Assembly: GCA_958295525.1 (NCBI GenBank)
Contig: OY282355.1
Span: 1,487,504-1,551,503, forward strand
Length of the DNA stretch: 64,000 nucleotides
DNA from: an uncultured Dehalococcoidia bacterium
GTDB taxonomy: Bacteria; Chloroflexota; Dehalococcoidia; Lucifugimonadales; Australimonadaceae
Reading direction: 5' to 3'
The stretch's first letter is position 1. Each line of letters starts with the position of its first letter. Both the position numbers and the translations under genes were made by a program. The notes under the pieces are model-generated. The model was given only the letters and a program-made list of their open reading frames with translations. It did not search any database and was not told the DNA's origin. Shown piece by piece: positions 1,842-63,119 of the stretch.

Positions 1842-3319
1842 CGCCGGACGGCGCGCCTCCCCTGCGCGAGGCGGCCCATAACCGCCGCCGGCTGCTGATG
1901 GAGCGCAGCCGCCCCGGGCGCGAGGGCGTAACGCTTCCCGCGTCCGACGCGCCGCCGCAGCCGATGCCCGACGCCGCCATGCTGCGGGACGGCTTGGAAC
2001 TGCCGGAGGTCACCGAGGGCGAGGTCGTCCGCTACTTCACGCATCTCAGTCAGTTGAACTTCTCCGTGGACACGAACTTCTATCCGCTCGGCAGTTGCAC
2101 GATGAAGTACAACCCGAAGGTGAACGAGGCCGTCGCCGCCCTTCCGGGCTTCGCGCTCGCGCACCCCGCCCAGCCGGAGCGGCAGGTTCAGGGCGCGCTG
2201 GAGGCGCTGTTCCGGCTCCAAACCTTCCTGCAGGAAGTGAGCGGCTTGCCAGCCGTGAGCCTCGCTCCGCTCGCGGGGGCGCAAGGAGAACTCGCCGGGG
2301 TTCTCACGCTCCGGGCCGCGCTCGAAGCCCGGGGGGAAGGCCGGCGCCGCAAGATGCTCATCCCCGACACCGCGCACGGCACGAATCCCGCGTCGGCGGC
2401 GATGGCGGGCTTTCAGGTCGTTCACGTCCCGTCCGACTCCGGCGGCGACATAGACCTCGGGGCCGTGCGCGCCGAGGCGGACGGCGACATCGCGGGCGTG
2501 ATGTTCACGCAGCCCACGACGCTCGGCCTCTTCGACCGCAACGCTCTCGAAATGTGCCGCGTCGTCCATGAGGCGGGCGGGCTGGTCTACGCGGACGGCG
2601 CGAATATGAACGCCCTGCTCGGGCGCGCCAAACTCGGACAGATGGGCTTCGACGTCGTCCATATGAACTTGCACAAGACGTTCAGCACGCCCCACGGCGG
2701 AGGCGGCCCCGGCGCGGGTCCGATCTGCGTGAGCGCCGAACTCGCTCCCTTCCTGCCCGGACCCGTCGCCGTTCGTCGGGACGACGGCTCCTACGGCAGC
2801 GAGACGCCGGCGCGGAGCATCGGGCGCGTCGGCGGCGCGCAAGGCAACTTCGGCGTGCTCATCCGCGCCCTCTCCTACATAACGCTCTTGGGCGCGGACG
2901 GCATGCTGGACGTCAGCGGCAACGCCGTTCTCAACGCGAACTACCTTCTCGCCAAACTCCGCCCGCTCTACGATCTGCCTTTCGACCGTCCGGTGATGCA
3001 CGAGGTCGTCTTCTCCGCCCGCAAGCGGCCTGGGGCGACTGCGCTGGACGTCTCCAAACGCTTGCTCGACCACGGCTTCCATGCCCCCACGATGTACTTT
3101 CCGCTCGTCGTCCCCGAGGCGCTGATGATCGAGCCCACCGAAACGGAGTCGAAAGAGACGCTCGACGCTTTCGTGGAAGCGCTCCATCGCATAGACGCGG
3201 AGGCGGCGGCGGACGAATCGTTCCTGCATGGGGCGCCCTATGACGCGCCCGTCTCACGCCTCGACGAGGCGCGCGCGGCGCGCCGCCCCGAACTGCGCTG
3301 GCGCGAGCCTGAGGCGTAG
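1838..3319 (+). CDS. gcvPB: glycine dehydrogenase (aminomethyl-transferring) subunit 2
   Basis: In-frame ATG at 1838 inside the 1121..3319 ORF. Conserved motifs FYPLGSCTMKYNPK and NLHKTFSTPHGGGGPG (PLP-lysine region). The upstream 239 codons are Arg/Pro-rich out-of-frame overlap with gcvPA. Confidence 0.93.
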   Translation: MTPDGAPPLREAAHNRRRLLMERSRPGREGVTLPASDAPPQPMPDAAMLRDGLELPEVTEGEVVRYFTHLSQLNFSVDTNFYPLGSCTMKYNPKVNEAVAALPGFALAHPAQPERQVQGALEALFRLQTFLQEVSGLPAVSLAPLAGAQGELAGVLTLRAALEARGEGRRRKMLIPDTAHGTNPASAAMAGFQVVHVPSDSGGDIDLGAVRAEADGDIAGVMFTQPTTLGLFDRNALEMCRVVHEAGGLVYADGANMNALLGRAKLGQMGFDVVHMNLHKTFSTPHGGGGPGAGPICVSAELAPFLPGPVAVRRDDGSYGSETPARSIGRVGGAQGNFGVLIRALSYITLLGADGMLDVSGNAVLNANYLLAKLRPLYDLPFDRPVMHEVVFSARKRPGATALDVSKRLLDHGFHAPTMYFPLVVPEALMIEPTETESKETLDAFVEALHRIDAEAAADESFLHGAPYDAPVSRLDEARAARRPELRWREPEA

Positions 3320-5430: not shown

Positions 5431-5844
5431 ATGACCGGGCAAGCGACCGGACGGACGGGGCAAGGGCTCGGCCGCGAACGGAGGCTCCGCCGCCGGAAGG
5501 ACTTCGAGGCGCTGCGCGAGCGCGCCGACTCGCGGGCGCATCCGCTGCTGGTGATGCGGACCCGGGCCAACGCGCTTCCGCATTCGCGCTTCGGGTTCAT
5601 CGTGAGCAAGCGGGTCTCCCCGCTCGCCGTAACGCGGAACAAGGTGCGCCGGCGGCTGAAGGAAGCCGTCCGCGCCGTCGCGTTTCAGAAGGGATTGGAC
5701 GTGCTCGTCATCGCGCGCAAGGACTCGCCGAACGTCTCCTACGACGCGCTGCGGAGCACCGTGGCGTCGCTGGCGCGGAGGCTGCGCGCGCTGGACGGGC
5801 AGGAGCGTCCGCCGGAAGCGGAGGCAGGGGGCGGTGATGCGTAA
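5431..5844 (+). CDS. rnpA: ribonuclease P protein component
   Basis: 137-aa basic protein with [26 protein letters not shown] (RNR motif region), in the canonical position after rpmH. Confidence 0.88.
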
Positions 5845-6103
5845 AGCCGCATTGGGGCTGATCACGCTCTATCAGCGGGCGCTCTCCCCCTACTGGCCGG
5901 CGTCGTGCCGCTACACGCCCACGTGCTCCCATTACGCGCGGGAAGCGGTGAGCGCGCACGGAACGGCGCGGGGCGGATGGCTCGCGGCGAAGCGGCTCGT
6001 CCGCTGCGGGCCCTGGGGAGGCTCCGGCTACGACCCCGTTCCGCTCGCGCCCTCGGGCGAGCCTTCCATAGAGCAAGAGAACGCCGGAGCAGGCTTGGCG
6101 TAA
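5834..6103 (+). CDS. yidD: membrane protein insertion efficiency factor YidD
   Basis: [31 protein letters not shown]...[14 protein letters not shown] matches the YidD signature. Overlaps the rnpA end by 11 nt. Confidence 0.9.
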
Positions 6104-6168: not shown

Positions 6169-7353
6169 ATGCAGAGGTTGAACCGAACTGGCCCTGACGC
6201 CAGCCGGACGGGGCGCGCTCCCGCGCTCGCGGCGCTGGCGCTCGTCATCGCCGCCGCGCTGCTGGCCGGATGCACGCAGAGCAGAAACGCCGCCACGCAG
6301 AGTTGGTCGGGCGTCGCCGTCGCGGGAGAGTCCGTCTTCGTCGGCAACCGCGAGGGGCGCCTCGTCCAACTCTCGGTGGACGGCGGCGTGACGCAACTCG
6401 CCCCGTATCAGGCGCCGCAGCCAAGCCAGGAGCAAGGCTTCCCCGCAATCTACGGCTCGCCCGTGGTGAGCGGCGGGCGCATCTTCGCGGGCACCTACAA
6501 CGGCATCGTCTTCTCGCTCGACGCGGAGAGCCTGGGCGACGCGCGAACCTTCGAGATAGACGGCAACGACTTGGCGAAAGGCATCGCCGGAAGCGTCGCG
6601 GCGGAAGGCGGAGCCATCGCGGTCGCGGCGGCGGAAGACGCGGGCGAGGGCAGGCTCTACGTCCTCGAGGCGGCGAGCCTCGCCGAACGCTGCCGCTACC
6701 CCGCGCGCAACGAGCGCCCCACGGGCCAACTCTGGACGACGCCGGTCATCCGCGAGGGAATCGCCTACTTCGGCGACCTCAGCCACCAACTGCACGCCGT
6801 TTCGCTCTCGAACTGCCGCCCCGTATGGGACGCGCCCGCGAAGTTGGGCGGCGCAATCGTCGCGCCCCCGGTCATCGTCGGCAGGCGGCTTTATATGGGG
6901 GCGTTCGACCGCGAGTTCTACGCGGTGGACGCCGCGACGGGGGCGTCCGAGCGGCTCTTCGAGGCGGGAGGCTGGTTCTGGGGCGCCGCCGCGACGGACG
7001 GCGCGAGGCTGTACGTCCCGAATATGGACGGCAACATCTACGCCTACGACGTCTCCGCAGGGCGCGTCGTTTGGACGTATCCGGGCGGCGAGGAGCGGAA
7101 CGAGCCCGTGCTCGCCGCCCCTGCGGTCGTCGGCGACAGCCTCGTCTACGCCTCGGACTCCGGCGTGCTGTCGGTCTTGGACGCGCGTTCGGGCAATCGC
7201 CTTTGGGACAGGCGCGTGCGGAACGAAGTCCGCGCTCCCCTCACGACGGACGGCTCGCTCGTCTTCCTGCACTCCCTCGACGAGACGATTTCGGCCATCG
7301 ATCTGGACACGAAGCAACTCGTCTGGGAACGCAGCCTGGACGACGTACGGTAG
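6169..7353 (+). CDS. PQQ-like beta-propeller repeat lipoprotein (BamB-like fold)
   Basis: ATG at 6169 with lipobox ALLAGC-T. Repeated ...G.LYA.D..TG...W blades (for example HAVSLSNCRPVWD, FYAVDAATGASERLF, IYAYDVSAGRVVWTY, LSVLDARSGNRLWD). Confidence 0.7.
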   Translation: MQRLNRTGPDASRTGRAPALAALALVIAAALLAGCTQSRNAATQSWSGVAVAGESVFVGNREGRLVQLSVDGGVTQLAPYQAPQPSQEQGFPAIYGSPVVSGGRIFAGTYNGIVFSLDAESLGDARTFEIDGNDLAKGIAGSVAAEGGAIAVAAAEDAGEGRLYVLEAASLAERCRYPARNERPTGQLWTTPVIREGIAYFGDLSHQLHAVSLSNCRPVWDAPAKLGGAIVAPPVIVGRRLYMGAFDREFYAVDAATGASERLFEAGGWFWGAAATDGARLYVPNMDGNIYAYDVSAGRVVWTYPGGEERNEPVLAAPAVVGDSLVYASDSGVLSVLDARSGNRLWDRRVRNEVRAPLTTDGSLVFLHSLDETISAIDLDTKQLVWERSLDDVR

Positions 7354-7371
7354 AAGAGGGGCGGAGCGTCA

Positions 7372-8307
7372 ATGGAATTCCTGTCGCTGCTCTGGAATGA
7401 GGTCATCACCAAGCCGATGACGAACAGCCTGCTCGTGCTGTACGTCGCGCTGGGCGCCAACCTCGGCTTCGCCATCATCGCGTTCACCGTCATCGTGCGC
7501 GGCCTCACCTACCCGCTCGTCGTGCGCCAGTTGCGCCAGACGCGCAAACTGCAGGGGCTTCAGCCGCGCATCAAAGACATCAACGAGAAGCACAAGAACA
7601 ACCCGCAGTTGCGCGGCCAAGAGGTGATGAAACTCTACAAGGAGATGGGCGTGAATCCGGTGGGCTGCCTCGGCCCGCTCGTCATTCAGATGCCTATCTT
7701 CATCGGCCTCTTCTGGGCGATCAACGGCGTGCTGCCTTTCACGCCGGAGAATCTCGCCGGCCTATCGGGCAGGCTCTACAGTTGGTTGCCCTTCCTCGAC
7801 AGCGTCGTGCCCGTCGACCGCGCCTTCCTCGGTATGGACCTCGCGCTGGAGCCGATGCGCGCGGGCAGCATCCTCGGCTACATCCTCGTCGCCCTCTCCG
7901 GCCTCAGTATGTTCGTGCAGCAGAAGATGAGCCAAGTGGCCTCGGCGGATCCGCAACAGCAGAGCACTCAGCGGATGATGCTCTTTATGTTCCCCGTTAT
8001 GTTCGGAATGTTCAGCCTCTTCTTCCCGCTGGGGCTCGTCGTCTACTGGGTGGCGTCCACCCTCATCGGCATCGTGATGCAGTATTTCGTCACCGGATGG
8101 GGAGGCCTGTTCCCCCAGCGAGAGGAAGCGAAGAGCGCGGCCGCGCCGAGACTCGGCCCCACGCTCAGCGCCGCCCCGTCCGGCAAGGAGGAGAGCGATG
8201 GAAGAGGAGAGCCTCGTCCGGTCAGCGAAGACGGTGGAGGAGGCGATCGAACTCGCAACCCTGGAACTCGGCGTCGGCCGCGACGAAATCGAAATCGACG
8301 TCGTTAG
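7372..8307 (+). CDS. yidC: membrane protein insertase YidC (short, monoderm type) with highly basic C-terminal tail
   Basis: GFAIIAFTVIVRGLTYPL..Q......LQPRIKDINEKHKNNPQ....E.MKLYKEMGVNPVGCLGPLVIQMPIFIGLF is the YidC/Oxa1 core. The tail ends ...GTRRRPRRNRNRRR. Confidence 0.85.
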   Translation: MEFLSLLWNEVITKPMTNSLLVLYVALGANLGFAIIAFTVIVRGLTYPLVVRQLRQTRKLQGLQPRIKDINEKHKNNPQLRGQEVMKLYKEMGVNPVGCLGPLVIQMPIFIGLFWAINGVLPFTPENLAGLSGRLYSWLPFLDSVVPVDRAFLGMDLALEPMRAGSILGYILVALSGLSMFVQQKMSQVASADPQQQSTQRMMLFMFPVMFGMFSLFFPLGLVVYWVASTLIGIVMQYFVTGWGGLFPQREEAKSAAAPRLGPTLSAAPSGKEESDGRGEPRPVSEDGGGGDRTRNPGTRRRPRRNRNRRR

Positions 8308-32660: not shown

Positions 32661-33401
32661 CTACGGAGCGCGGCTGTCCGCTTGCCCCTCCTGCAGAAGC
32701 GACGTAATGCGTCGGTCTATCCGCTGGCGTTCGAGGATGGCGTTGCACATTTGGCGCGCCATTTCGATCCGGTCTTCCGAAAGGTTGCGGTCGAGAACGG
32801 CCTCGTCAATGACCGTTCCCTTCAGATACTTAGCGTTAAGCGTAGGGTAAGTTTTGCCCCACCGCGACAGCGACGAGAGAAATGCGCGGAAGTCCCCGCG
32901 CAGCATCAGAAACAGCGCCGAAGTCGCTATTCCGTCGTCATCGCCGCAGGCTGAAAGCAGCCTTTCGCCTGGGCGAAATGGGTGCAATTTCGTCGTGAAA
33001 TAGCAATCCTCTTCCCCTGTGACGATCGTGAATTTCCCGAGGTAAACGCGCGTAGTTGGGACGAGGACGTGCCAGTCGTCAAGCGACATGATGTCCCCTT
33101 TCCGAGTTTTGCTTCGGACTCGGCCGGTCTGCTTGCCGTCTCCGGCGTCATCGCCCGACTCTTGCTGGCTGGGGTCTATGAACCGCGGGGAAATGCGCCC
33201 CATCCGATCTATGTCGCCAATCTCGCAGTAGCGGTACGCCGTGTCCGGCTCGGCCGGCTCGTGGTCTACGTCCGCAATGAAAAACGCCTCCGACGCGGGG
33301 ATAGGAGAGGCTATCCTCGACTGCGCGAGCGCGTAGTCGACGTCCAGCCGCAAGCCCGGCCCCCGCAGGAGGTCTGCCGGAGCTATAGCGCGGACTTCCA
33401 T
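32661..33401 (-). CDS. restriction-modification specificity (S)-like protein with a single target-recognition domain
   Basis: 246 aa. YCEIGDID..GRI......RKGDIM......LGKFTIV.......TTKLHPFRP and a helical C-terminal tail resemble a HsdS half-subunit. Overlaps the upstream methyltransferase gene by 19 nt. Confidence 0.5.
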   Translation of the reverse strand: MEVRAIAPADLLRGPGLRLDVDYALAQSRIASPIPASEAFFIADVDHEPAEPDTAYRYCEIGDIDRMGRISPRFIDPSQQESGDDAGDGKQTGRVRSKTRKGDIMSLDDWHVLVPTTRVYLGKFTIVTGEEDCYFTTKLHPFRPGERLLSACGDDDGIATSALFLMLRGDFRAFLSSLSRWGKTYPTLNAKYLKGTVIDEAVLDRNLSEDRIEMARQMCNAILERQRIDRRITSLLQEGQADSRAP

Positions 33402-35461
33402 AACCGCTCCCTCCGAAAGTAATCTAAGATGCCCGCGAGGTCGTTCCGGTCGTCCGGTCGCTCGTTCTTCGCGGTGCGCTGATACCCTAAGTAATTCGCC
33501 CGCGCGAACAAGATATGCTTGTGAGACTGAAGATGCTCGCTTGCCGTCTCGTTGTAATGGTCGGCCAATTCGCTCGGCGCCTTCTTCTGCGCGAAAACTA
33601 AAGAGGTTTTCGTGGAAGTGTAAGGATAGAAAGCGTCAGCGGGGAGAGACACCACCGCTTTGATCCAAAAATGCCGCAGAAGGTGGTCGCGGGCCGCGCT
33701 CTTCACCCCATCGAGCAAACTATTCGGAACGACGACACCCAATCTCCCGCCCGGCTTGAGCAGTTGGAACCAGCGGTCGAGGAACAACGCTTCGCTCGCT
33801 TTCGTTTGCGCGACTATAGCCAAAGATTTCGCGTATCTGGCAAGTTCGTCGTCGGTGTATTTGACTGAAAAAGGAGGATTGGAGATAACTGCGTCAAAAT
33901 GTTCGGAAACATCCCTGGGGTAGATTCCATGCGGAGCGGAGCCGGACAGTTCAGGGCAAGCGGAAGAGTACTGGGAAAACGCCGCCAAACCGTCGCCTTG
34001 CTGCGGCCCCGAAAAGATGCAGGACGATCCATCCGCATGCAACAGCATGTTGATCTGGGCGGCCAAACCAAGGTCTGAGTTGATTTCCAATCCATAGCAA
34101 TGGTCGCCTGCCCAGGCGTGACGACGCTCCTGATTGAGGGTTTTGTTGATTATTTCCCTGGCGCCGCTGTTCAACTTGTCCCATTCCGTGTCGCGCAGCG
34201 TTTGCACCGCCGCGAAAATGCGCTCCATCGCCTTGACTAGGAATGTGCCTGACCCCGCGGACGGGTCAATGACCACCGGAGGAGCCTCTCCTTTCCTGAC
34301 GCGCTCAGTTGTCCAGTTTTCTATGTCCAACGCTTGCACGACGAAGTCGGCGATGTTGGCGTGCGTGAAGAATTGACCTTTGTTTTGCTTGAATCCTTGC
34401 CGCATAATGCGCTCGAAGAAATCCCCCAGCATATCCGCGCCGCTTTCGGAATTCGCAAGCGAAAACAGGTCGTACCGCTCGAGTCGCTCTACTGCGTAAC
34501 GAATCTGCGCGTCCGTCCCCTTGCCTGCGTCGCGGACATTTTTCTCATCCGCCTGCTCTCTCGAGAAATTCAGCCTAGTCGTCAAACCGTCGCGGTAGAG
34601 ACCGTTAATCCGCTTCAACGAAGCGTCCAAAGACTCGCCTTCCAGCGTCTGGAATCCGTATTTTTCACCCGGCGTCGCGGTGCGTTCGTCGGTGATCTTC
34701 GCCAAGATAAGCCTCGTCAGAAGATTGAACACGTCCGTGTCCGTCGAACCGCCGCCTCCCCAGAGAACGTCGTGCAGCGTCATCCGGAGGCTGTCTAACT
34801 CGCCAACAGTGACTTCCCGCCGCAGGTCTTTTTTCCCGCCCTTAACGTAAGGCTCTTTGCTCGGTTTGCCGTAGTTGGGGCTAATGGCGTCGGCTGCGAT
34901 AATTTGCCCGTTGTCTTTCCAATCACGGTAGTCACGGCGCTGAGACGCATCCACAACCTGCGCTTCCAAACTAACGGTCCCGAATTCGGCATGCGCCGTT
35001 CCATAGACGAGAACGTCAGGTCTGGGCGTTTCGAACTGCGCCAGCCCGAACAGTTGCGACTCCCACGCCTCGTTCCGCTCCGCCCCGTAGCGGTCCTCGG
35101 TCTTGAGTTCCACCAGCGCATACGCCGACTCCGTTCTGTTCTCTTTGCGCGCGATGGCGATGTCCGCGTATTTGTCTCCCGCTCCCCGTCCCGCGCGGGC
35201 GCGGACCGGGTACTCGATCCACACCAACTCAGGCGCGTATTTCAAGTCGTGAACAATATGGATGACGAACAACGCCCGGACCGCTTCCTCCGGATCCGTC
35301 ACGCTCGTGAGCCTTCCCCTGCGAATCGCGTTGTCGTAGGCGGGGTATCCGCCGACGAGCGACACCACGCATTCGGGCACGCTCTCTATTCTGCGCCGCA
35401 ACGCTTCGCGGAGGCCGGATATGCCTCCGAGTTCCGGCGTATTCCCGTCTGATGAAACCAT
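33383..35461 (-). CDS. fused N6-adenine DNA methyltransferase with N-terminal PD-(D/E)xK (HSDR_N-like) domain; Type IIG/IIB-like RM protein
   Basis: Gamma-class motifs QFFTHANIADFVV, VIDPSAGSGTFLV and ISNPPFSV. The N-terminal GDKYADIAIARK....AYALVELK fits a D...E-x-K nuclease core. Confidence 0.72.
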   Translation of the reverse strand: MVSSDGNTPELGGISGLREALRRRIESVPECVVSLVGGYPAYDNAIRRGRLTSVTDPEEAVRALFVIHIVHDLKYAPELVWIEYPVRARAGRGAGDKYADIAIARKENRTESAYALVELKTEDRYGAERNEAWESQLFGLAQFETPRPDVLVYGTAHAEFGTVSLEAQVVDASQRRDYRDWKDNGQIIAADAISPNYGKPSKEPYVKGGKKDLRREVTVGELDSLRMTLHDVLWGGGGSTDTDVFNLLTRLILAKITDERTATPGEKYGFQTLEGESLDASLKRINGLYRDGLTTRLNFSREQADEKNVRDAGKGTDAQIRYAVERLERYDLFSLANSESGADMLGDFFERIMRQGFKQNKGQFFTHANIADFVVQALDIENWTTERVRKGEAPPVVIDPSAGSGTFLVKAMERIFAAVQTLRDTEWDKLNSGAREIINKTLNQERRHAWAGDHCYGLEINSDLGLAAQINMLLHADGSSCIFSGPQQGDGLAAFSQYSSACPELSGSAPHGIYPRDVSEHFDAVISNPPFSVKYTDDELARYAKSLAIVAQTKASEALFLDRWFQLLKPGGRLGVVVPNSLLDGVKSAARDHLLRHFWIKAVVSLPADAFYPYTSTKTSLVFAQKKAPSELADHYNETASEHLQSHKHILFARANYLGYQRTAKNERPDDRNDLAGILDYFRRERLWKSAL

Positions 35462-54488: not shown

Positions 54489-55613
54489 TCAGCCCGACCC
54501 GACGCCCTCGACGGCGAACCGCTCCTCCTCAGGAGGCGAGGCTTGCTCGCGCTCGTTCCATCCCCAGCAGGCGGCTGCTCCGTCGGCGCCGAGCGCGCAG
54601 GAGAAGGCTCCGCCGCTGCTGACGGCGGAGAAGTTCCGGCCTTGCGGAGGCGACGTCTGGCCATATGGGTCGTCTCCCCAGCAGACGGGCGAACCGTCGG
54701 GGCGGAGCGCGCAAGTGTGCGCCCCGCCTGCGCTGACGGACGCGAACCGCTCGCTCTCCGGCGGCGACGCCTGCCCCCATAAGTCCCGTCCCCAACACAC
54801 GGGCGCGCCGTCGGGACGGAGCGCGCACGTGTGCTCCCCGCCTGCGCTGACGGACGCGAACCGCTCGCCTTCCGGCGGCGACGCTTGGCCGGAGGTATCG
54901 TCTCCCCAGCAGACCGGCGAGCCGTCAGGGCGGAGCGCGCACGTATGCGAGTCGCCTGCGCTGATGGCCGCAAACTGCTCGCCCTTCGGCGGCGACGCTT
55001 GGCCGAATTGGTCGTCCCCCCAGCAAACGGGAACGCCGTTGAGCCGGATCGCGCAGGAGTGCCCCAAGCCGCCTCTGACGTCTGCGAACCGCTCGCCTTC
55101 CGGCGGCGACGCCTGGCCGGAGCCATCGTCTCCCCAGCAGACCGGCGAGCCGTCGGCAAGAAGCGCGCACGTGTGGAAACCGCCGACGCTGACGGACACG
55201 AACTTTTGCCCCTGCGGGGGCGCCGTTTGGCCGAATTCGCTGTCTCCCCAGCAGACGGGCGAGCCGTCGGGAAGGAGCGCGCAGGCGTGCAACCCGCCGG
55301 CGCCGATGGCCGAGCGCCTGAGCGGCGCGCGGTACGAAGAGGGCGTCGGCGTCGAGTCAGGCGCCGGACCCGGCGTGGAAGTCGGCGCGGAGGCGGAGGT
55401 TGGCGTCGGAGTCAACGCCTGCGTGGTTGCGGAGGTTGGCGTCGGAGTCAACGCCTGCGCGGTTGCAGAGGTTGGCGTCGGCGCGGTTGCGGAAGTCGGC
55501 GCGATGGTTGGCGTCGGAGTGGGCGTAGGTTCCGACCGGCAAGCGGCGAACGCCGACAGCGAAGCGGCAGCGAAAAGCAAGAAGGCGGCGAGGCCGAGCA
55601 TATTGCCTAGCAT
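54489..55613 (-). CDS. RCC1-like repeat lipoprotein
   Basis: Start MLGNMLG at 55613. Lipobox SAFAAC-R and a Pro/Thr linker. Seven to eight repeats of about 37 aa: F..VS.G..HTCALRPDGSPVCWGDD..GQASPP.GE. Confidence 0.75.
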   Translation of the reverse strand: MLGNMLGLAAFLLFAAASLSAFAACRSEPTPTPTPTIAPTSATAPTPTSATAQALTPTPTSATTQALTPTPTSASAPTSTPGPAPDSTPTPSSYRAPLRRSAIGAGGLHACALLPDGSPVCWGDSEFGQTAPPQGQKFVSVSVGGFHTCALLADGSPVCWGDDGSGQASPPEGERFADVRGGLGHSCAIRLNGVPVCWGDDQFGQASPPKGEQFAAISAGDSHTCALRPDGSPVCWGDDTSGQASPPEGERFASVSAGGEHTCALRPDGAPVCWGRDLWGQASPPESERFASVSAGGAHTCALRPDGSPVCWGDDPYGQTSPPQGRNFSAVSSGGAFSCALGADGAAACWGWNEREQASPPEEERFAVEGVGSG

Positions 55614-55843
55614 AGCCCAGCCGGGGGCGGCGCTGCGAGGCAATTCATCAGCGGCGAAGGAACGATTTGGAGCGCGGATTTCGCGGTGAGAAGATAGCCG
55701 CGCCGCGCTGGTGCGCCTCCGATTCCCGCCTACGCGGTCAAGGTGGAAATTATGCAAGGCTCCGCATGCGGAAAGGTTCTACATGCGGAAAATGCGACAC
55801 GCGCCCCTTGCGCGGTCGGCGCTCGCCCGGCGACGATAGGCGT

Positions 55844-57238
55844 ATGACGCGCAACACGCTCACGAAAACGACCTTTCTCTGCCGGGATTGCGGCCACTCC
55901 TCGCCGAAGTGGAACGGACGCTGCGCGGCCTGCGGCGCTTGGGGAACGCTCGCCGAATTCGCCGAGCCCAAAGCCCGCGCCGCCCGCCGCGCTCCCTCCT
56001 TCCGCGCCTGCGCCGACGCTGCCCCCGCTCCCGCTCCCCTCCTCGAGCAGCCCTCCTCCGACGGCGCGCGCATGAGTTCCGGCCTCGCCGAGACCGACCG
56101 GCTGCTCGGCGGCGGCTTCGTCGCGGGCTCCGCCGTTCTGCTCGCGGGCGACCCCGGCATCGGCAAGTCCACGATCCTTATGCAAGCGGCGGGCTTCATC
56201 GCGGAATCGGGGAACGACGTCCTCTACGTGTCGGGCGAGGAGTCCGGGGCGCAGGTGCGGCTCCGCGCCGAGCGGCTCGGCGTCCGCAGCCCCCGCGTGC
56301 TCTTCTCCGACGAAACCGACGCCCTGACGATAGCCGCGATGCTCGAGCGCGAACGCCCCGCGCTCCTCATCGTGGACTCCATCCAAACGCTCTCCTCGCC
56401 GGACGCTCAGTCGGCGGCGGGCAGCGTCGCCCAGACCCGCGAGTGCGCCCAAATCCTCATCGGCGCCGCCAAACGGACGAACGTTCCCCTCGTGATGACC
56501 GGCCACGTGACGAAAGACGGGAACATCGCAGGGCCGCGCGTGCTCGAGCATATGGTGGACGTCGTGCTGGCGATGGAGGGCGAGCCCGCAGGCGCGCTCC
56601 GCGTTCTGCGCTGCCCCAAGAACCGCTTCGGCGCGGCCAACGGCGTCGCCCTCTTCGAAATGCGGAACGACGGCCTCGCCGAAGTGCGCGACCCCTCCGC
56701 CCTCCTCGTCGCCGAGCGCGACCTTTCCGCCCCGGGCTCGGCGGTCGCCGTCACGATGCAAGGCAGCCGGCCCCTCCTCTGCGAAGTGCAGGCGCTGACG
56801 AATCCGTCCGCGTTCAGCCCGCCCCGACGCGCCGCCACCGGCGTCGACTTCAACCGGATGGCGATGCTGACCGCCGTCCTCTCGCGCCGAGCGAGAATCG
56901 CGGTGGGCAATCAAGACGTGCTCGTGAACGTCCCCAGCGGCCTCCACGCCGCCGAGCCCGCCCTCGACCTCGCCATAGCGGCCGCCATCGCCTCCAGTTA
57001 TATGGACGCGCCCATCCATCCGGCGACCGTCGTCATCGGCGAGGTCGGGCTGAACAGCGAAACCCGCAGCGTCTCCCATTTGGAGCGGCGGCTGGAGGAG
57101 GCGGCGCGGCACGGCTACGAGCGCGCCGTCGTTCCCGAGGCCGCGCTGCGCTCGCTCGCGCCTCAGCCCGGCGTCGAGGCCATAGGCGCCGCGAATGTCC
57201 GCGCAGCCCTCGCCGCCGCCATCCCCGCGTCCGGCTAG
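55844..57238 (+). CDS. radA: DNA repair protein RadA/Sms
   Basis: ATG at 55844. Zinc finger CRDCGHSSPKWNGRCAACGAW, Walker A GDPGIGKST, KNRFG motif, Lon-like C-terminus. Confidence 0.92.
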   Translation: MTRNTLTKTTFLCRDCGHSSPKWNGRCAACGAWGTLAEFAEPKARAARRAPSFRACADAAPAPAPLLEQPSSDGARMSSGLAETDRLLGGGFVAGSAVLLAGDPGIGKSTILMQAAGFIAESGNDVLYVSGEESGAQVRLRAERLGVRSPRVLFSDETDALTIAAMLERERPALLIVDSIQTLSSPDAQSAAGSVAQTRECAQILIGAAKRTNVPLVMTGHVTKDGNIAGPRVLEHMVDVVLAMEGEPAGALRVLRCPKNRFGAANGVALFEMRNDGLAEVRDPSALLVAERDLSAPGSAVAVTMQGSRPLLCEVQALTNPSAFSPPRRAATGVDFNRMAMLTAVLSRRARIAVGNQDVLVNVPSGLHAAEPALDLAIAAAIASSYMDAPIHPATVVIGEVGLNSETRSVSHLERRLEEAARHGYERAVVPEAALRSLAPQPGVEAIGAANVRAALAAAIPASG

Positions 57239-57315
57239 GCGCTGTTCGCGCAGGATGCGAGATCACAAGTAGGCGAGACAATCCTGCGAAAGGCGTCCGC
57301 CCGCCCGAAAGCCGG

Positions 57316-58242
57316 CTAGCGCCTCGCGGCGCCCGCCGATCCGCACACGAGCGTCACCCAATCGTCGTCCCGATGCTCCTCGATGATAGCGAGCCCCGCT
57401 GCGGCGAAAGCGTCCACGACCTGGCCGCGCCGCTCCTGCAAGACGCCGGAGGCGACGAGCCGCCCGCCGTCCGCCGCCGCGCGGCGCAACTCCGGCGCGA
57501 GGTTGGCGAGCGCGACGGAGTTGACGTTGGCGAGCGTGAGATTCGCCCAGCCGGGAGGCACGCGCTCGTTGGGGAGCGTCCCCGCGTAGAGGCGAACGGC
57601 CCCGGAGACGCCGTTGGCCCGAACGTTGGCGCGCCCCGCCTTGAGCGCCACGCGGTCGATCTCCACGCCAAGAACGCGCGACGCCCCCAACTTCGCCGCG
57701 CCGATGCTCAGCACGCCGGAGCCCGCGCCGACGTCCAGCACGGCGTCCCCGGGGCGCAGCAATTGCTCCATGCAGGCGAGCGTCCGGTTCGTCGTGGGGT
57801 GGTGGCCGGTGCCGAACGCGAGGCCGGGGTCTATCTCGATGACGACGTCGCCGGGCCCGGCCTCGTCGCGCAGCCAGGGCGGCTGCACCAGCAAACGCTC
57901 GCCGACGCGCAGCGGTGTGAAATGCGCCTTCCACGCCTCCTCCCACTCGCGCTCCTGAATCTCGCGCTCCTCCAGCGGCGGCAGGTCGGTGAGTTTGCCC
58001 ACGAGTTGTAGGCCGATGTGGACGAGTTCGCGGTTGCGCCGGTAGGCGGCGGTCTGCGGCATATAGGCGCGGATGATCGCGCTCTGACGCGGAGGCGGAG
58101 ACTCGCCCTCGTCCGGGTTCCACCCGCCCGCCTCCTCGATGGCGACGCCGCCCTTTCCGTAGCGACGGAAAAGTTCCGCGACCGGCTCCACGAACTCGAA
58201 AGGAACGCGGACTTTCAGTTCCAGCCAGGAGCGGGGGGTCAT
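57316..58242 (-). CDS. prmA: ribosomal protein L11 methyltransferase
   Basis: WLELKVRVPFEFVEPVAELF...GVAIEE and AdoMet motif VLDVGAGSGVLSIGAAKLGA..VLGVEID. Confidence 0.9.
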   Translation of the reverse strand: MTPRSWLELKVRVPFEFVEPVAELFRRYGKGGVAIEEAGGWNPDEGESPPPRQSAIIRAYMPQTAAYRRNRELVHIGLQLVGKLTDLPPLEEREIQEREWEEAWKAHFTPLRVGERLLVQPPWLRDEAGPGDVVIEIDPGLAFGTGHHPTTNRTLACMEQLLRPGDAVLDVGAGSGVLSIGAAKLGASRVLGVEIDRVALKAGRANVRANGVSGAVRLYAGTLPNERVPPGWANLTLANVNSVALANLAPELRRAAADGGRLVASGVLQERRGQVVDAFAAAGLAIIEEHRDDDWVTLVCGSAGAARR

Positions 58243-58874
58243 GGGACGGCCCTCGGCGTCACGATTGGCGCGCCGCCGTCTACCGCATCGAGCAATTCTA
58301 TCAGCGCATGCTCCATCCGGCGGAAGGAACGTGATCGGCGAGCAATCATTTCAAGGTCGACAACAGCCGCTAGAGCGGGTTGATCTGTGGGCTCGGTATA
58401 GGAACTGGAACGCTCCATATTCCTTTGCAGCCATCCCTTCGGGTTTCTTGTTGCGTCGGGGTCATCAGGGCCGCGAACACCAGAGGTCAACTGCAGTTTC
58501 ACGCGAACAGGGTTGTCAGGGCTCTCGTCCAACGCGGCGATGAACCAGGCTTCGAACTCGTAATGAGGAACCACAGTAGCGATGGGGACTTGCAAACCCA
58601 ACGCGGCTGCTCGAGCGGACAGACTCTTCGCCAAATCAACCGGGCAGTCGTGGTCGGCGTCAACGACCACCAGGATGGCGCAGCAGTCCTTGTCGAAGCG
58701 TGCGTACTGGACGAAGTCCTCGAATCGCTTCAGGAGAGTCGACTTCCCCCCTGTGTTCTGGATCCGGCCCATCCGCACATCCCAGCGCGTATGAGAATTC
58801 AACAGGCGATCCGCCAGTATGCGGACTGACGGCGCATCCCCTTGGCCTTCAACGATTGCGCTAATCTTCATCAT
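58239..58874 (-). CDS. DUF4276 family protein (Toprim-like E...DxD signature)
   Basis: 211 aa. N-terminal ISAIVEGQGD, then AILVVVDADHDC and YEFEAWFIA, the pattern I associate with DUF4276. ATGA overlap with the prmA start and 14-nt overlap with the upstream ATPase gene. Confidence 0.7.
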   Translation of the reverse strand: MMKISAIVEGQGDAPSVRILADRLLNSHTRWDVRMGRIQNTGGKSTLLKRFEDFVQYARFDKDCCAILVVVDADHDCPVDLAKSLSARAAALGLQVPIATVVPHYEFEAWFIAALDESPDNPVRVKLQLTSGVRGPDDPDATRNPKGWLQRNMERSSSYTEPTDQPALAAVVDLEMIARRSRSFRRMEHALIELLDAVDGGAPIVTPRAVP

Positions 58875-60039
58875 TTGTCAGCTCTGGCTCAAGCCCTTCC
58901 CTCTGGTGCAGTTCGCCAAGCGTGAAGAGTTCTTCCCGCATAGCCCTAAGTTGACGGTTAGACACAGTACCAACCTGAGTGGTTCCGTCCTCAAATTTGA
59001 CGGCGCGAATAGATTGGGGGGGCAACGGATCTATAAGGTCAGGGCTGTGCGTTGTGATCAGCACTTGCGTCTCCGGCGTTACTGACTGCAGATAATGCGC
59101 CAATTTGGAAGCGGCGCCCGGGTGCACGTTCAATTCCGGTTCCTCTAGCGCAACGAATCGGGGAGCAGGGCGCTGGTGGATTGCCAGCAGAATGCCGAGG
59201 AGGCGAAGCGTGCCATCCGACTCTTGGTCGCCACCTATCCATGAAGGGGTCTCGTGTCCACCGGCGTCACGACGCTGAATTCGAGTAACCAAATAGCCGG
59301 TTGAAAGCCGGACGTCAACGCCGACGACGCCGGGGACAAGCAATCCTAACGCTTCCACAACCTGATGGAATTGATCAGGCGAACCTTTCTTGAGTTGGTG
59401 CAGCAACGATGCCGAATTTTCACCATTCTCACTCAGCGGATAGGGCGTGACTTGCTTCTGAATCCCTCCAATGGCCGCAGGCGATATGCTGTAGAAGCGC
59501 AGATCTTGCATTCGCCGTAGGAACGATCTCACCGCCATGCCGCGCGGATCACGGATGGTCAACCGAGGAGGCAACGAACGCAAAACCAGTTCAGTCGGCT
59601 CGAATTCAACATCATCTCGTACAAGGTCTCTGGGGTGCGTCAACTTTCCGTTTTTGACCCGGTATTCAAAGGGGGCGCGCTCTCTGGGCAACTGGAATTT
59701 CCCGCACTCCTGGCTCACCGCATAGGTTCCGCCCGGCTTCGCGGCTAGGGTGAACCTGTACTCGACGTTGGCAGGGGTCTGCATTGTCAGCCCGACTTCA
59801 ATGTTGCGTGGGCGGCTAGGCGACCAACGGCGGATCGCTTCTATGCCCCCGCGGCTGGAGACTGCCCGGTCAAGATCTATCGTGAGCGCGTCGGATATGA
59901 ACCTGGGAATGTCCACCAAGTTGCTTTTGCCCGCCGCGTTGCGCCCCACAAGCGCTGTGATCGGGCCGAGTTCAAGGCGCGCTTCGCCGATGGAACGATA
60001 GTTCCTCGCGTGGACGGCGCTGATGAACGGATCTTGCAT
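58861..60039 (-). CDS. ABC/SMC-like AAA ATPase (AAA_15/AAA_21 type)
   Basis: Start MQDPFISAV at 60039. Walker A GRNAAGKSN, signature-like ESDGTLRLLG, Walker B RFVALEEPELNVHP, H-loop ITTHSPDL. The 231 upstream codons of the track ORF are Arg/Gly-rich antisense of dnaJ. Confidence 0.75.
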   Translation of the reverse strand: MQDPFISAVHARNYRSIGEARLELGPITALVGRNAAGKSNLVDIPRFISDALTIDLDRAVSSRGGIEAIRRWSPSRPRNIEVGLTMQTPANVEYRFTLAAKPGGTYAVSQECGKFQLPRERAPFEYRVKNGKLTHPRDLVRDDVEFEPTELVLRSLPPRLTIRDPRGMAVRSFLRRMQDLRFYSISPAAIGGIQKQVTPYPLSENGENSASLLHQLKKGSPDQFHQVVEALGLLVPGVVGVDVRLSTGYLVTRIQRRDAGGHETPSWIGGDQESDGTLRLLGILLAIHQRPAPRFVALEEPELNVHPGAASKLAHYLQSVTPETQVLITTHSPDLIDPLPPQSIRAVKFEDGTTQVGTVSNRQLRAMREELFTLGELHQREGLEPELTNDED

Positions 60040-60083
60040 GCTTATGGCCTCAGGCGGAAGTCTACCACAGGCTCGCCCGCGCC

Positions 60084-61160
60084 CTAGTTCTTCTCGAACG
60101 AGCGCTGCAACTCCTCGAGCAGACGCTTCTGATCTTTCGAGAGTTTCTCCGGCGTGCGGACGCGGACGGTGACGAGTTGGTCGCCGCGGCGACCGTCGCG
60201 CCCGAGGTGCGGAATGCCTTTGCCTTTCATACGGAAAACGCTCCCGGGCTGCGTTCCGGCGGGAACCTTCAATTTCGCGTCGCCGTCTAGCGTCGGAACC
60301 TCCGCCTCGATTCCCATCGCCGCCGCCGGAAACGTGACGTCTAGGTCGAAGAGCACGTCGGCGCTGTTCTCGCGCCGCCGGAACGCGGGGTGCTTCTGCA
60401 CGTTGACGGTCACCAGCAGGCTTCCCGGAGGGCCGCCGTCCGGTCCCGCGTCGCCCTGCCCGCGCAACTCCAGCGTGGCGCCGTCGTAGACGCCTGCGGG
60501 CACGGCGACCTGGATGCGGCGCTTCGATTCCTCGCGCCCCAGCCCCCGGCACTGCTTGCACGGATTGACGATGCGCTGGCCGCCGCCGCCGCAAACGTTG
60601 CAGTACGCCTCCGTCACGAACTGGCCGAACACCGAACGCTGCGAGCGGCGGACGCGCCCGCTGCCCCGGCAGTTTCCGCAAGTCTCCGGCTCCGTGCCGG
60701 GCTCCGACTTGGAGCCTTTGCACGCTCCGCACTGCTCGACGCGCCCCACCGACACCTCGCGGTTGGCTCCGAACGCCGCCTCCTCGAACGTGACGCTCAC
60801 CTCGACGTGGCGGTCGCTCCCCGCCCGCGTCCGCGAGCGCGCGCCGGCAGCGCCTCCGAAGAACGAGTCGAAAATCGTGCCGAATCCGCCGAACAGGTCG
60901 GAGCCGTCGAAGCCGCCGGGCCTCGGCCCTCCGCCGTTCCCCGCCGCGTGTCCGAAGCGGTCGTAGGCGTTCCGCCGCTCCGGATCGCTCAGCGTCTGAT
61001 ACGCCTCGTTGACTTCCTTGAAACGTTCGGACGCGTCGCTCGCCTTGTTGCGGTCGGGGTGATATTCCATCGCCTTCTTGCGGAAGGCTTTGCGAATTTC
61101 CTCCTCTGACGCTTGCCGGCTGACGCCGAGCGCCTCGTAGTAGTCGCGCTTGGTCGTCAC
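60084..61160 (-). CDS. dnaJ: molecular chaperone DnaJ
   Basis: GTG start at 61160 (GTGA overlap with the hrcA stop). [35 protein letters not shown], a G/F region and four CxxCxGxG zinc motifs. Confidence 0.92.
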
Positions 61161-62236
61161 AGCGGGGCCGCCTGCCCCGAAGCGGGCGCTTCCAACGCTT
61201 GCACGAACTCGCTCAGGAACGCCGCGAGATAGCGGACGCTGGACATCGCGCGGACGTAGTCCATTCGCGTCGGCCCCATCGCCCCGACGACCCCCGTCGC
61301 CCCGTCCGGCGCGCCGTAGGTGGCGTAGACCACGCTGTAGGGGCGCAGATGCTCGTCGCGGCTTTCCCGCCCGATGACGACGCGCACCTCGGCGGGCTCC
61401 GCCGACTCCGAGAAGAGGCGCGTGAGCGAATCGTCGTCCAGGAACTCGGCGGCGTCCTGCGCGCTCTTGCTCGACTGGAACTCCGGCTGATTCAGCATCA
61501 GGCTGAGCCCGTTCAAGTAACGCTCCTGCGTCTCGCTGCCCTCCTCGTCCAAGAGAATGCGGACCGTCTCCGCGAGCGCGGTGGCGACGACGAGCGGCAG
61601 CGGCCGGCCGGAGTCGGCGAGCGATTGCAGTTCGGCGGCGCTCTTGCCCGCGGCGATCCGGTTGAGGCGGACCGCCGCCTCCGTGAGCGCGTCTTGCGCC
61701 GCGTCCTCTTCCAAGTGAATGATGCGCTGCCGGAGCCTGGCCTCTTGCATCACGACGACCAGCAGCGCCTCGCGGTCGTGCAAGTGAACCAGTTGCGCTT
61801 GCTTGACGCGGGCGACGGCGGGCTTGACCGTCGTCGCGATAGCGAGGTTCCCCACTGCGCCGGCCAGCAAGCGGGCGGCGCTGCGCGCCCATCCGGCGGG
61901 GTCCGCCTCGTCGAAGTTGATCGCCCCGCGCACCTGCTCCTGAAAGCGGCGCGGGGGGCGCGCTCCCGCCGCGCGGTCCACGTAGAAGCGGTAGCCGGGG
62001 TCGGAGGGCGCCGCCCCGGCGGAGGAGTGCGGGCGCGAGATGTACCCCATCTCCTCCAATTCGGCCATATCGTTGCGGATCGTCGCCGGACTCAGACGCA
62101 GTTCGTAGCGGCGGGCGAGTTGCCGTGACGCGACGGGAACGGCGGTCTCGATGTAGTCGCTGACGATGATCTCCAGCAACGTCTGCCTGCGCGCGTTGAG
62201 CGCCGGCGCGGGATGAGTGGCGGTTGGCTTGTTCAA
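61157..62236 (-). CDS. hrcA: heat-inducible transcription repressor HrcA
   Basis: TTG start. [71 protein letters not shown]. Confidence 0.9.
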
Positions 62237-62306
62237 GCGCTCGCTCCTGTGTGCGGCGCATTATAGCGCAGCGCGCCCGCGTGGTCTGCCCTGCCCGCCG
62301 CCGGGC

Positions 62307-62315
62307 TGGTATAGT
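62307..62315 (+). promoter_or_regulatory. extended -10 element TGgTATAGT ending 6 nt before the ATG of the enoyl-CoA hydratase gene
   Basis: TG at 62307-62308, TATAGT at 62310-62315, ATG at 62322. No Shine-Dalgarno sequence fits between them. Confidence 0.45.
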
Positions 62316-62321
62316 GCGCGC

Positions 62322-63119
62322 ATGAACGACGAACGCGATGCGCTGTTGGTGGAGCGCGACGGGGCGGTCGCGACGCTGACGCTGAACCGCCCCGAGCGGC
62401 GCAACGCCATCTCCTACGCGATGTGGCTGCGCCTGCCGGAATTGCTGGCCCGCTTGGATGCGGACGACGCCGTTCGAGTCGTGATCGTAACCGGCGCGGG
62501 AGAGCAGGCGTTTTCCGCAGGAGCCGACATCAAGGATTTCGAGGAGACTCGGAGCGACCCGGCGCGCGCGCGGGAGTACCGGCGGGCGGTTCACGCGGCG
62601 TGCGACGCGCTGGCCGGCCTCTCGAAGCCGACGATCGCCGCGGCGCGAGGCCATTGCCTCGGCGGAGGCTTGGAACTCGCGCTCTGCGCCGACGTCCGAA
62701 TAGCGTCAATGGACGCCTCGTTCGGGCTGCCCGCCGCGAAGCGCGGAATCGTAATCTCGCATGCTCACGTCGACCGTCTGCTGCGGCTCGCGGGGCCGGG
62801 GGAAACGGCCTACCTGCTCCTGAGCGGGCGCGCGATTCCCGCCGTCCGGGCGGCGGCGACCGGCGTGATCAGCATGGCGGTGCAAAGCGAGAACTTAGCC
62901 GAGCGGGCCCGCGAACTGGCGGAGGAGATCGCGTCGCTCTCGCCCGTGTCGCACCGGATGCACAAGCGCGTCCTGCGCGACTTGCTGGAGTTCGGCGCGG
63001 CTGAGCAAGTCCCGCCCGAACGCCTCGCCGCGCCGGACGAAACGGAAGCGAGCGAGGATTTCCTCGAGGGGGTGCGGGCGTTCCGCGAGAAGCGCGCCCC
63101 GCAGTTTCCGGGGCGGTAA
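62322..63119 (+). CDS. enoyl-CoA hydratase/isomerase family protein
   Basis: [16 protein letters not shown]...[21 protein letters not shown]...[19 protein letters not shown] is the crotonase signature. Confidence 0.85.

Follow-up and report, generated by a model that had tools for sequence, protein, structure and literature searches.

A candidate HEC-01 defence cassette inserted between dnaJ and prmA in a narrow clade of SAR202/Dehalococcoidia bacteria

Introduction

HEC-01 (Hma-embedded candidate 01) was described as the combination of an ATP-binding cassette (ABC) ATPase with a TOPRIM protein that shares the metal-binding site of BpOLD, and the cassette recurs within Hma systems (Payne et al., bioRxiv 10.1101/2024.01.29.577857). 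In cold-seep genomes HEC-01 is among the most frequent candidate types, and a 2026 study reported that E. coli B carrying one cold-seep HEC-01 cluster was protected from at least one of the phages T4, T5 and T7 (PMC12881386). The system is abundant in environmental genomes, with almost no mechanistic data and with conflicting reports on its phenotype. Its smaller protein carries the domain DUF4276, which has been formally counted among the Toprim superfamily and connected with Mad4 of MADS, a DUF4276 homologue; RloB of RloA/RloB belongs to a sister Toprim family and has an AAA_21 ATPase as its partner (PMC12065111). DUF4276 is also among the domains that annotate the AAA15/21 ATPase tree in the PARIS paper, in which it forms one class of ATPase partners (PMC11464382). 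Here we analysed an ATPase/DUF4276 gene pair located between dnaJ and prmA in a 64,000-nucleotide stretch of DNA (hereafter the window), whose flanking genes place it in the uncultured SAR202/Dehalococcoidia (Chloroflexota).

An earlier note, made from the letters of the window, had taken the ATPase/DUF4276 pairing to be uncharacterised. This claim does not stand, as the pairing had already been named HEC-01, described and lightly tested (bioRxiv 10.1101/2024.01.29.577857, PMC12881386). On the profile matches given below, the pair is assigned to this named candidate anti-phage system, HEC-01 in PADLOC, and is not a new system. What is new here is modest: the unusual insertion inside a core operon, the retention at a single locus across the carrier clade, and a clean recombinational series of alleles. 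Knowledge of the HEC-01 family itself is unchanged by the present locus.

Match of the gene pair to HEC-01

Both genes lie on the minus strand. The first (58861-60039) encodes a 392-aa HEC-01A-type ABC ATPase, and the second (58239-58874) encodes a 211-aa HEC-01B-type DUF4276 protein, a predicted Toprim-fold metal-dependent nuclease effector. In PADLOC, the ATPase matched the HEC-01A model PDLC04178 with an E-value of 8.1e-92 (residues 3-389 aligned to profile positions 6-386 of 399), and the DUF4276 protein matched the HEC-01B model PDLC04196 with an E-value of 2.3e-44 (residues 1-195 to positions 1-192 of 197); of the ten top PADLOC matches of the ATPase, nine are to HEC-01A models, and the remaining one carries the label HEC-01B. 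The gene order is also that of HEC-01, with A followed directly by B on the same strand and with overlapping open reading frames (ORFs), which here share 14 nt, and both have the same composition of an ABC ATPase and a DUF4276/TOPRIM protein with Glu and DxD. Embedding in Hma or another defence system, by which HEC-01 was discovered but which is not a requirement of the model, is not seen, the immediate neighbours being dnaJ and prmA. Pfam assigned the ATPase to AAA_21 (1.1e-26) and AAA_15 (2.6e-16) and the second protein to DUF4276 (4.2e-12, 47.2 bits against a cutoff of 30.2), all above gathering scores, while an NCBIfam scan returned no model matching the DUF4276 protein. In relatives, the start of the DUF4276 gene aligns with the second Met of the window frame (58871).

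The ATPase contains a Walker A motif GRNAAGKSN (aa 32-40), a signature SDGTLRLLG (aa 274-282), a Walker B motif ALEEPE (aa 297-302) and an H-loop THSPD (aa 330-334). Among 52 homologues, the residues G32, N34, G37, K38 and S39, G276-T277-x-R279, E299-E300-P301-E302, and T329, T330, H331 and S332 are invariant or nearly so, and the catalytic motifs are likewise conserved across all six local alleles. When the profile of these 52 homologues was searched against the PDB, the best match was OLD (6p74, 1.7e-20), followed by PtuA (8ee4, 3e-16); GajA and AriA (8ux9, 7e-10) and then the SMC and Rad50 heads were also matched. An AlphaFold2 model of the ATPase (pLDDT, the predicted local confidence score, 93.9; lowest internally at residues 131-170) was matched by Foldseek to PtuA, SMC, Rad50 and condensin heads with E-values of 1e-14 to 1e-12, a probability of 1.00 and template-modelling (TM) scores of 0.5-0.66. 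Both motifs and modelled fold indicate that the ATPase is an ABC head of the SMC/Rad50/PtuA type.

In the DUF4276 protein, the motifs IVEGQGD and VVVDADHD occupy aa 7-13 and 69-76. The conserved columns of 57 homologues are E9, D72, D74, E106, E108, W110 and K146, of which D72 is invariant and E9 and D74 are each conserved in at least 90% of the sequences. The AlphaFold2 model (pLDDT 96.4) runs in the order β1 (2-8), helix, β2 (33-40), helix, β3 (64-70), helix, β4 (98-101), with Glu9 directly after β1 and D72-A-D74 directly after β3, so that in the model the Glu/DxD signature that PMC12065111 describes for Toprim proteins occupies the correct structural positions. The only PDB structure matched with a TM score above 0.5 is 6nk8_A, the Toprim-containing C-terminal region of BpOLD (TM 0.52/0.55, probability 0.99, weak E-value of 1.8e-2), and the best match in a viral library is a RloB-like protein (probability 1.00, E-value 1.2e-3). 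A sequence-profile search of the DUF4276 alignment against the PDB gave zero matches at E-values up to 10. Given these weak Foldseek E-values and the empty profile search, we consider the modelled Toprim fold suggestive; the same fold assignment was reported independently by Payne et al. and in PMC12065111.

These results agree with most of what the earlier note had read from the letters. Its coordinates, motifs and overlaps were all correct when the ORFs of the window were re-checked, and the two-gene architecture of an ABC-type ATPase and a separate small Toprim-like partner is supported. The Glu/DxD reading of the DUF4276 protein is borne out by the homologues and by the model, and the proposed analogy to OLD, Gabija and PARIS finds counterparts in the PADLOC, PDB-profile and Foldseek matches. 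Of the checks it had suggested, the Pfam searches gave matches above the gathering scores, the PADLOC searches gave full-length matches for both proteins, and the structure predictions of the single proteins gave confident models.

Comparison with other ATPase and nuclease systems

Unlike the described HEC-01 cassettes, the window pair lies outside Hma, restriction-modification and BREX systems and inside the hrcA-dnaJ-prmA operon of an uncultured SAR202 bacterium, and the ATPase alleles of its clade are only ~43% identical to the next-nearest homologues. Besides HEC-01, the two proteins gave weaker PADLOC matches to mad3 (3.9e-21), mad4 (5.4e-3), AriA, PDC-M07A, Old, NsnB and GajA.

PARIS resembles the pair in having two genes, for an ABC ATPase and a separate Toprim effector, and AriA belongs to the same AAA_15/AAA_21 group. 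Its effector AriB, however, is a DUF4435 protein of ~300 aa, compared with a DUF4276 protein of ~210 aa in the window, and AriA is ~460 aa long with other inserts, compared with 392 aa for the window ATPase. Membership in PARIS was rejected, as the matches to AriB (PDLC02983, E-value 0.024) and to Pfam DUF4435 (E-value 0.078, with 13.2 bits where the cutoff is 27) fall below threshold. OLD and GajA share the ABC ATPase motifs, and OLD provides both the best PDB sequence match of the ATPase (6p74) and, through its Toprim region (6nk8), the best whole-domain structural match of the DUF4276 protein. In these proteins, though, the ATPase and Toprim parts are fused in ~570-600 aa, whereas the window has separate 392- and 211-aa ORFs; with no single fused polypeptide in the window, membership in OLD or Gabija GajA was rejected, and a GajB-like helicase, as found in Gabija, does not accompany the pair. 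PtuA of Septu and retron type I-A is the closest solved fold to the window ATPase (Foldseek E-value ~1e-14), and PtuA-PtuB likewise joins an ATPase scaffold to a small separate nuclease; yet the effector PtuB is an HNH protein, not Toprim, and the window pair comes without the reverse transcriptase or multicopy single-stranded DNA (msDNA) of the retron.

Membership in MADS was rejected, since NF047739, the MAD3 equivalog model, reached 106.7 bits where 420 are required, and the flanking genes are dnaJ and prmA; neither the other mad genes nor type I restriction-modification genes adjoin the pair. Menshen was rejected as well. The match to NsnB is much weaker than those to HEC-01.

Distribution and acquisition of the pair

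To the left of the pair on the map of the operon stand hrcA (61157-62236), its first gene, and dnaJ (60084-61160; Pfam DnaJ, DnaJ_C and DnaJ_CXXCXGXG), the upstream housekeeping flank; the downstream flank is prmA (57316-58242; Pfam PrmA, 2.7e-66), encoding the ribosomal protein L11 methyltransferase. All are on the minus strand. A 44-nt spacer (60040-60083) between dnaJ and the ATPase gene forms the left junction of the insertion, and at the right junction the prmA ATG overlaps the TGA of the DUF4276 gene (ATGA, 58239-58242).

We collected 70 PrmA-anchored loci from species-representative genomes and Joint Genome Institute (JGI) metagenomes, with PrmA 33-94% identical to that of the window. 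The pair was present in none of the 70, among them the 21 loci of the JGI metagenome scan, all with PrmA at most 85% identical. In 52 of the 70 loci dnaJ directly precedes prmA, often at a distance of 2-13 nt. The genes do not adjoin in loci L005, L029 and L021, and L005 and L029, considered as alternative cargo at the same site, were rejected because synteny is broken there and unrelated genes lie upstream of prmA. By comparison, the eight closest DUF4276 homologues are 64-77% identical to the window protein, and the five homologue contexts that were fetched (L001, L002/L003, L004, L054 and L056) all read hrcA-dnaJ-ATPase-DUF4276-prmA. The carriers therefore comprise the window, five other distinct loci and one duplicate, within a narrow clade with PrmA at least 92% identical, and always at this site.

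The composition of the pair differs from that of its neighbours. The GC fraction is 0.57-0.60 over ~58200-59999 and 0.69-0.73 on both sides, and the GC fraction at third codon positions (GC3) in the window is 0.63 and 0.66 for the pair and 0.86-0.90 for hrcA, dnaJ and prmA; across the four carriers measured, GC3 is 0.63-0.73 for the pair against 0.86-0.91 for the flanks. The junctions are informative as well. In carriers, prmA starts with ATG-ACC-CC... (MTP..W), whereas empty sites start with TTG-GCT-GAG-CAT-CCC (LAEHPW), and the insertion therefore rebuilt the first ~five codons of prmA. A comparison of the six carriers showed that they share both junctions, namely the short spacer with the motif GGTAGACT and the rebuilt prmA 5' end overlapping the DUF4276 stop, which argues for one insertion in the ancestor of this narrow clade. 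Given the presence/absence pattern and the foreign composition, the pair came by horizontal transfer into an ancestor of this SAR202/Dehalococcoidia clade and was inserted precisely at the boundary of dnaJ and prmA.

The next ATPase homologues beyond the carrier clade are only ~43% identical, too distant to point to a donor. No donor was identified in phage and plasmid collections either, where distant DUF4276 homologues (25-33% identity) were found on one unannotated phage contig and three Streptomyces plasmids. Outside the clade, in contexts from Caldilineaceae, from metagenomic contigs of other lineages and from one Streptomyces plasmid, DUF4276 always lies directly downstream of an AAA_15/AAA_21 ATPase. 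In these contexts the pair is mostly a standalone unit surrounded by metabolic genes, in some cases with IS605/OrfB or DDE transposase genes close by, and its GC is always below that of its surroundings. At the window locus, no integrase or transposase was found among ORFs within ~4 kb of the insert, no tRNA gene in the window, and no target-site duplication or terminal inverted repeat around the insert, where only short chance direct and inverted repeats occur.

The earlier note had held that dnaJ and prmA are commonly contiguous, that the segment is more AT-rich than its neighbours and that this suggests acquisition; the 52 pair-less relatives with adjoining dnaJ and prmA, together with the drop in GC and GC3, corroborate all three. 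It had also proposed comparing this junction in related genomes and looking for the two families together elsewhere. The junction is indeed polymorphic for the presence of the pair, which is limited to the narrow clade, and the ATPase adjoins DUF4276 in all outside contexts examined.

Several further observations concern this junction and its surroundings. In L006, L007, L014 and L016 the empty-site dnaJ-prmA spacer is GC-rich and 118-275 nt long (~5725-6000 in each locus), with GGGAATGA[CT]GG-type motifs in L006, L007 and L016; the junction seems to be prone to small insertions. L029, a close GTDB relative (PrmA 93%), has lost the dnaJ-prmA adjacency and carries TdeIII- and EcoO109I-type restriction endonucleases with an N6_N4 methylase (816-3225), 3-5 kb upstream of prmA. 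In L054, a second, very divergent ATPase and DUF4276-like pair (1-1128) lies just upstream of the gene preceding hrcA. Its DUF4276-like protein is ~24% identical to the window protein over 78 aa and reads D-T-G at the DxD position, and this second pair may be a catalytically altered subtype. The names of some related assemblies hint at sponge-derived metagenome-assembled genomes.

Allele variation and selection

L001 and the window come from what is essentially one organism: nucleotide identity is 100% for hrcA and the spacer, 98.1% for dnaJ and 97.8% for prmA. The first 433 nt of the ATPase gene are 94.7% identical. In the hypervariable core of the cassette (58321-59606, minus strand), which covers the 3' two-thirds of the ATPase gene and most of DUF4276, identity falls to 80.4%, indels included. 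Accordingly, synonymous divergence (dS) between the two is 0.43 for the ATPase and 0.37 for DUF4276 but 0-0.067 for hrcA, dnaJ and prmA. L004 and L054 have one ATPase allele in common (dS 0.055) but differ in DUF4276 (dS 0.40). From these contrasts in dS, the alleles predate the strains in which they are found, and homologous recombination has exchanged them, with the conserved cassette ends as anchors.

Purifying selection acts on the two genes, and both are intact. The ratio of nonsynonymous to synonymous divergence (ω) is 0.13-0.36 for all pairs of distinct alleles and 0.06 for the near-identical ATPases of L004 and L054, from which we conclude that both genes are functional. The corresponding polymorphism ratio (pN/pS) is at most 0.47 in every 30-codon window of both genes, with no positive selection detected in either. 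Amino-acid variation is concentrated at aa 121-180 and 256-270 of the ATPase, which are surface segments, and at aa 16-60 and 121-180 of DUF4276; the diversity reflects old alleles and relaxed constraint. On the public contig of L001 the ATPase gene is uncalled, although its frame (6823-8001) is intact, with 392 aa and no stops, and the missing call is therefore an annotation gap and not a pseudogene.

The locus offers a natural allelic series: a single orthologous site holds six intact alleles, in which the catalytic motifs do not vary and the variable segments of the two proteins are localised. Representatives and chimeras for work on trigger specificity could be chosen with the help of this series. 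It also places a defence-type cassette within a core heat-shock/ribosome-modification operon of sponge-associated or marine SAR202 bacteria, a position at which island-based discovery methods would miss it.

Expression and regulation

All six carriers (window, L001, L002, L004, L054 and L056) share the conserved motif GGTAGACT, which lies 22-30 nt before the ATPase start (60059-60066 in the window). A GAGG ribosome-binding site lies at 60048-60051. GGTAGACT may be a -10 element carried by the cassette. TAGGAT-type motifs were also seen upstream of the ATPase in the distant homologues L057 and L059. A scan of 57000-62700 for sigma-70 consensus promoters and intrinsic terminators found neither between dnaJ, the pair and prmA; since the spacer thus holds no consensus promoter, the promoter reading of GGTAGACT is one that we infer. 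The frames overlap, and the genes are likely to be co-transcribed and translationally coupled.

Upstream of hrcA, a TATAAT box lies ~30 nt before the start codon. The whole window was queried for the CIRCE operator (TTAGCACTC-N9-GAGTGCTAA, up to 3 mismatches), and none was found, nor was any CIRCE-like inverted repeat seen upstream of hrcA. Control of the cassette by HrcA is therefore unsupported, and a heat-shock-regulated defence is speculation.

Discussion

We consider it likely that the pair is a horizontally acquired, self-contained HEC-01 defence-type cassette with allele exchange. By analogy with PARIS, the PtuAB proteins of Septu and retrons, and OLD/Gabija, the ATPase could form a nucleotide-dependent dimer or oligomer that holds its Toprim partner inactive, with the surface inserts at aa 121-180 and 256-270 sensing a trigger from a phage or mobile element. 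Such a trigger would release or activate the DUF4276 nuclease, in which Glu9 and Asp72/Asp74 would bind Mg2+ or Mn2+ and cut nucleic acid; the substrate would be tRNA, on the model of PARIS, or DNA, on that of OLD/Gabija. This cleavage might abort the infection.

A number of observations weigh against this explanation. No defence island surrounds the pair, and the nearest restriction-modification-like module is ~23 kb away. The pair has kept its single locus over several splits at the level of speciation (flank dS ~0.3-0.45), whereas defence genes often turn over faster, and neither gene shows the positive selection that was looked for in 30-codon windows. The Foldseek E-values behind the Toprim match are weak (1.8e-2 in the PDB and 1.2e-3 in the viral library), and the PDB profile search with DUF4276 was empty. 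In E. coli, one HEC-01 representative did not protect against any of the BASEL and classic coliphages (Payne et al., bioRxiv 10.1101/2024.01.29.577857), and the protection by the cold-seep cluster comes from a spot assay under over-expression with isopropyl β-D-1-thiogalactopyranoside (IPTG), reported without a stated fold-change (PMC12881386). The substrate, the trigger and the complex of ATPase and nuclease are proposed here by analogy with the related systems.

The negative HEC-01 assay (bioRxiv 10.1101/2024.01.29.577857) would fit a selfish addiction or toxin-antitoxin-like cassette, or a mobile-element remnant, that brings no benefit against phages and persists because its loss is harmful or because it is now needed for prmA translation. 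The same holds for the standalone position of the pair among metabolic genes in most contexts, sometimes by an IS605/OrfB or DDE transposase, for its GC below the surroundings everywhere, and for the prmA start codon embedded in the DUF4276 stop, which constrains a clean deletion. We nevertheless regard such a cassette as unlikely: the catalytic motifs are invariant and ω stays at 0.13-0.36 over a long divergence, HEC-01 recurs embedded in Hma (bioRxiv 10.1101/2024.01.29.577857), and one phage assay was positive (PMC12881386), while the locus shows no integrase, transposase, tRNA, target-site duplication or terminal inverted repeat. It is also quite unlikely, in our estimation, that the insertion into hrcA-dnaJ-prmA, where the scan detected no terminator and the pair is coupled to prmA, ties Toprim-nuclease immunity to the proteotoxic-stress transcript, or that the pair was co-opted for stress-linked RNA or ribosome quality control; were the link to the stress transcript true, defence would be boosted when phage infection perturbs proteostasis. 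In either case the cassette would be more than a passenger, kept at its one site while recombination swaps its sensor-like core between strains.

Toprim domains serve in RNase M5 and RecR, and this precedent lends something to a further explanation, in which the cassette has been domesticated inside the operon and now has a housekeeping or stress function, for instance as an RNase M5- or RecF/RecR-like ATPase and Toprim pair that acts under heat stress in the quality control of RNA, ribosomes or DNA (RNase M5 is cited as a Toprim protein in PMC12065111). The fixed locus, the coupling to prmA kept in all six carriers across species-level divergence, the purifying selection on both genes and the scan that detected neither a terminator nor an independent sigma-70 consensus promoter would all suit it. 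A housekeeping gene, however, would hardly be absent from every other related locus fetched, where the operon is the same, or still be foreign in composition, and the replacement of alleles between strains that are nearly identical typifies conflict genes, not housekeeping genes; adding that the nearest homologues beyond the clade (~43% identity) sit in unrelated contexts and that the window holds no CIRCE operator, we hold domestication to be very unlikely. Finally, the pair might be a fragment of a larger system (mad3/mad4 of MADS, an Hma-embedded system, Menshen or PARIS) with its other parts elsewhere, as the weaker matches to mad3 (3.9e-21), mad4 (5.4e-3), AriA, NsnB and PDC-M07A and the methyltransferase island at 32.7-35.5 kb might suggest. 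This is highly improbable, with the MAD3 score at 106.7 bits against a cutoff of 420, AriB and DUF4435 below threshold (E-values 0.024-0.078), dnaJ and prmA as immediate neighbours in all carriers, the methyltransferase ~23 kb off, and the two genes occurring alone in the unrelated contexts examined.

Other features of the window

A second low-GC island was found at 32661-35461 on the minus strand, with GC of 0.57-0.58 against ~0.68-0.70 around it. It contains a gene (33383-35461) for a 692-aa protein with HSDR_N_2, N6_Mtase and Eco57I-type methyltransferase domains, overlapped by a 246-aa ORF (32661-33401) that has no Pfam match. Probably the island is a type IIG or restriction-modification-like module that arrived by horizontal transfer. 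A 422-aa RCC1-repeat protein with six RCC1_2 repeats is encoded at 54489-55757, also on the minus strand, and the internal DNA repeats of this gene, with ~75% identity, give rise to many off-diagonal BLAST matches.

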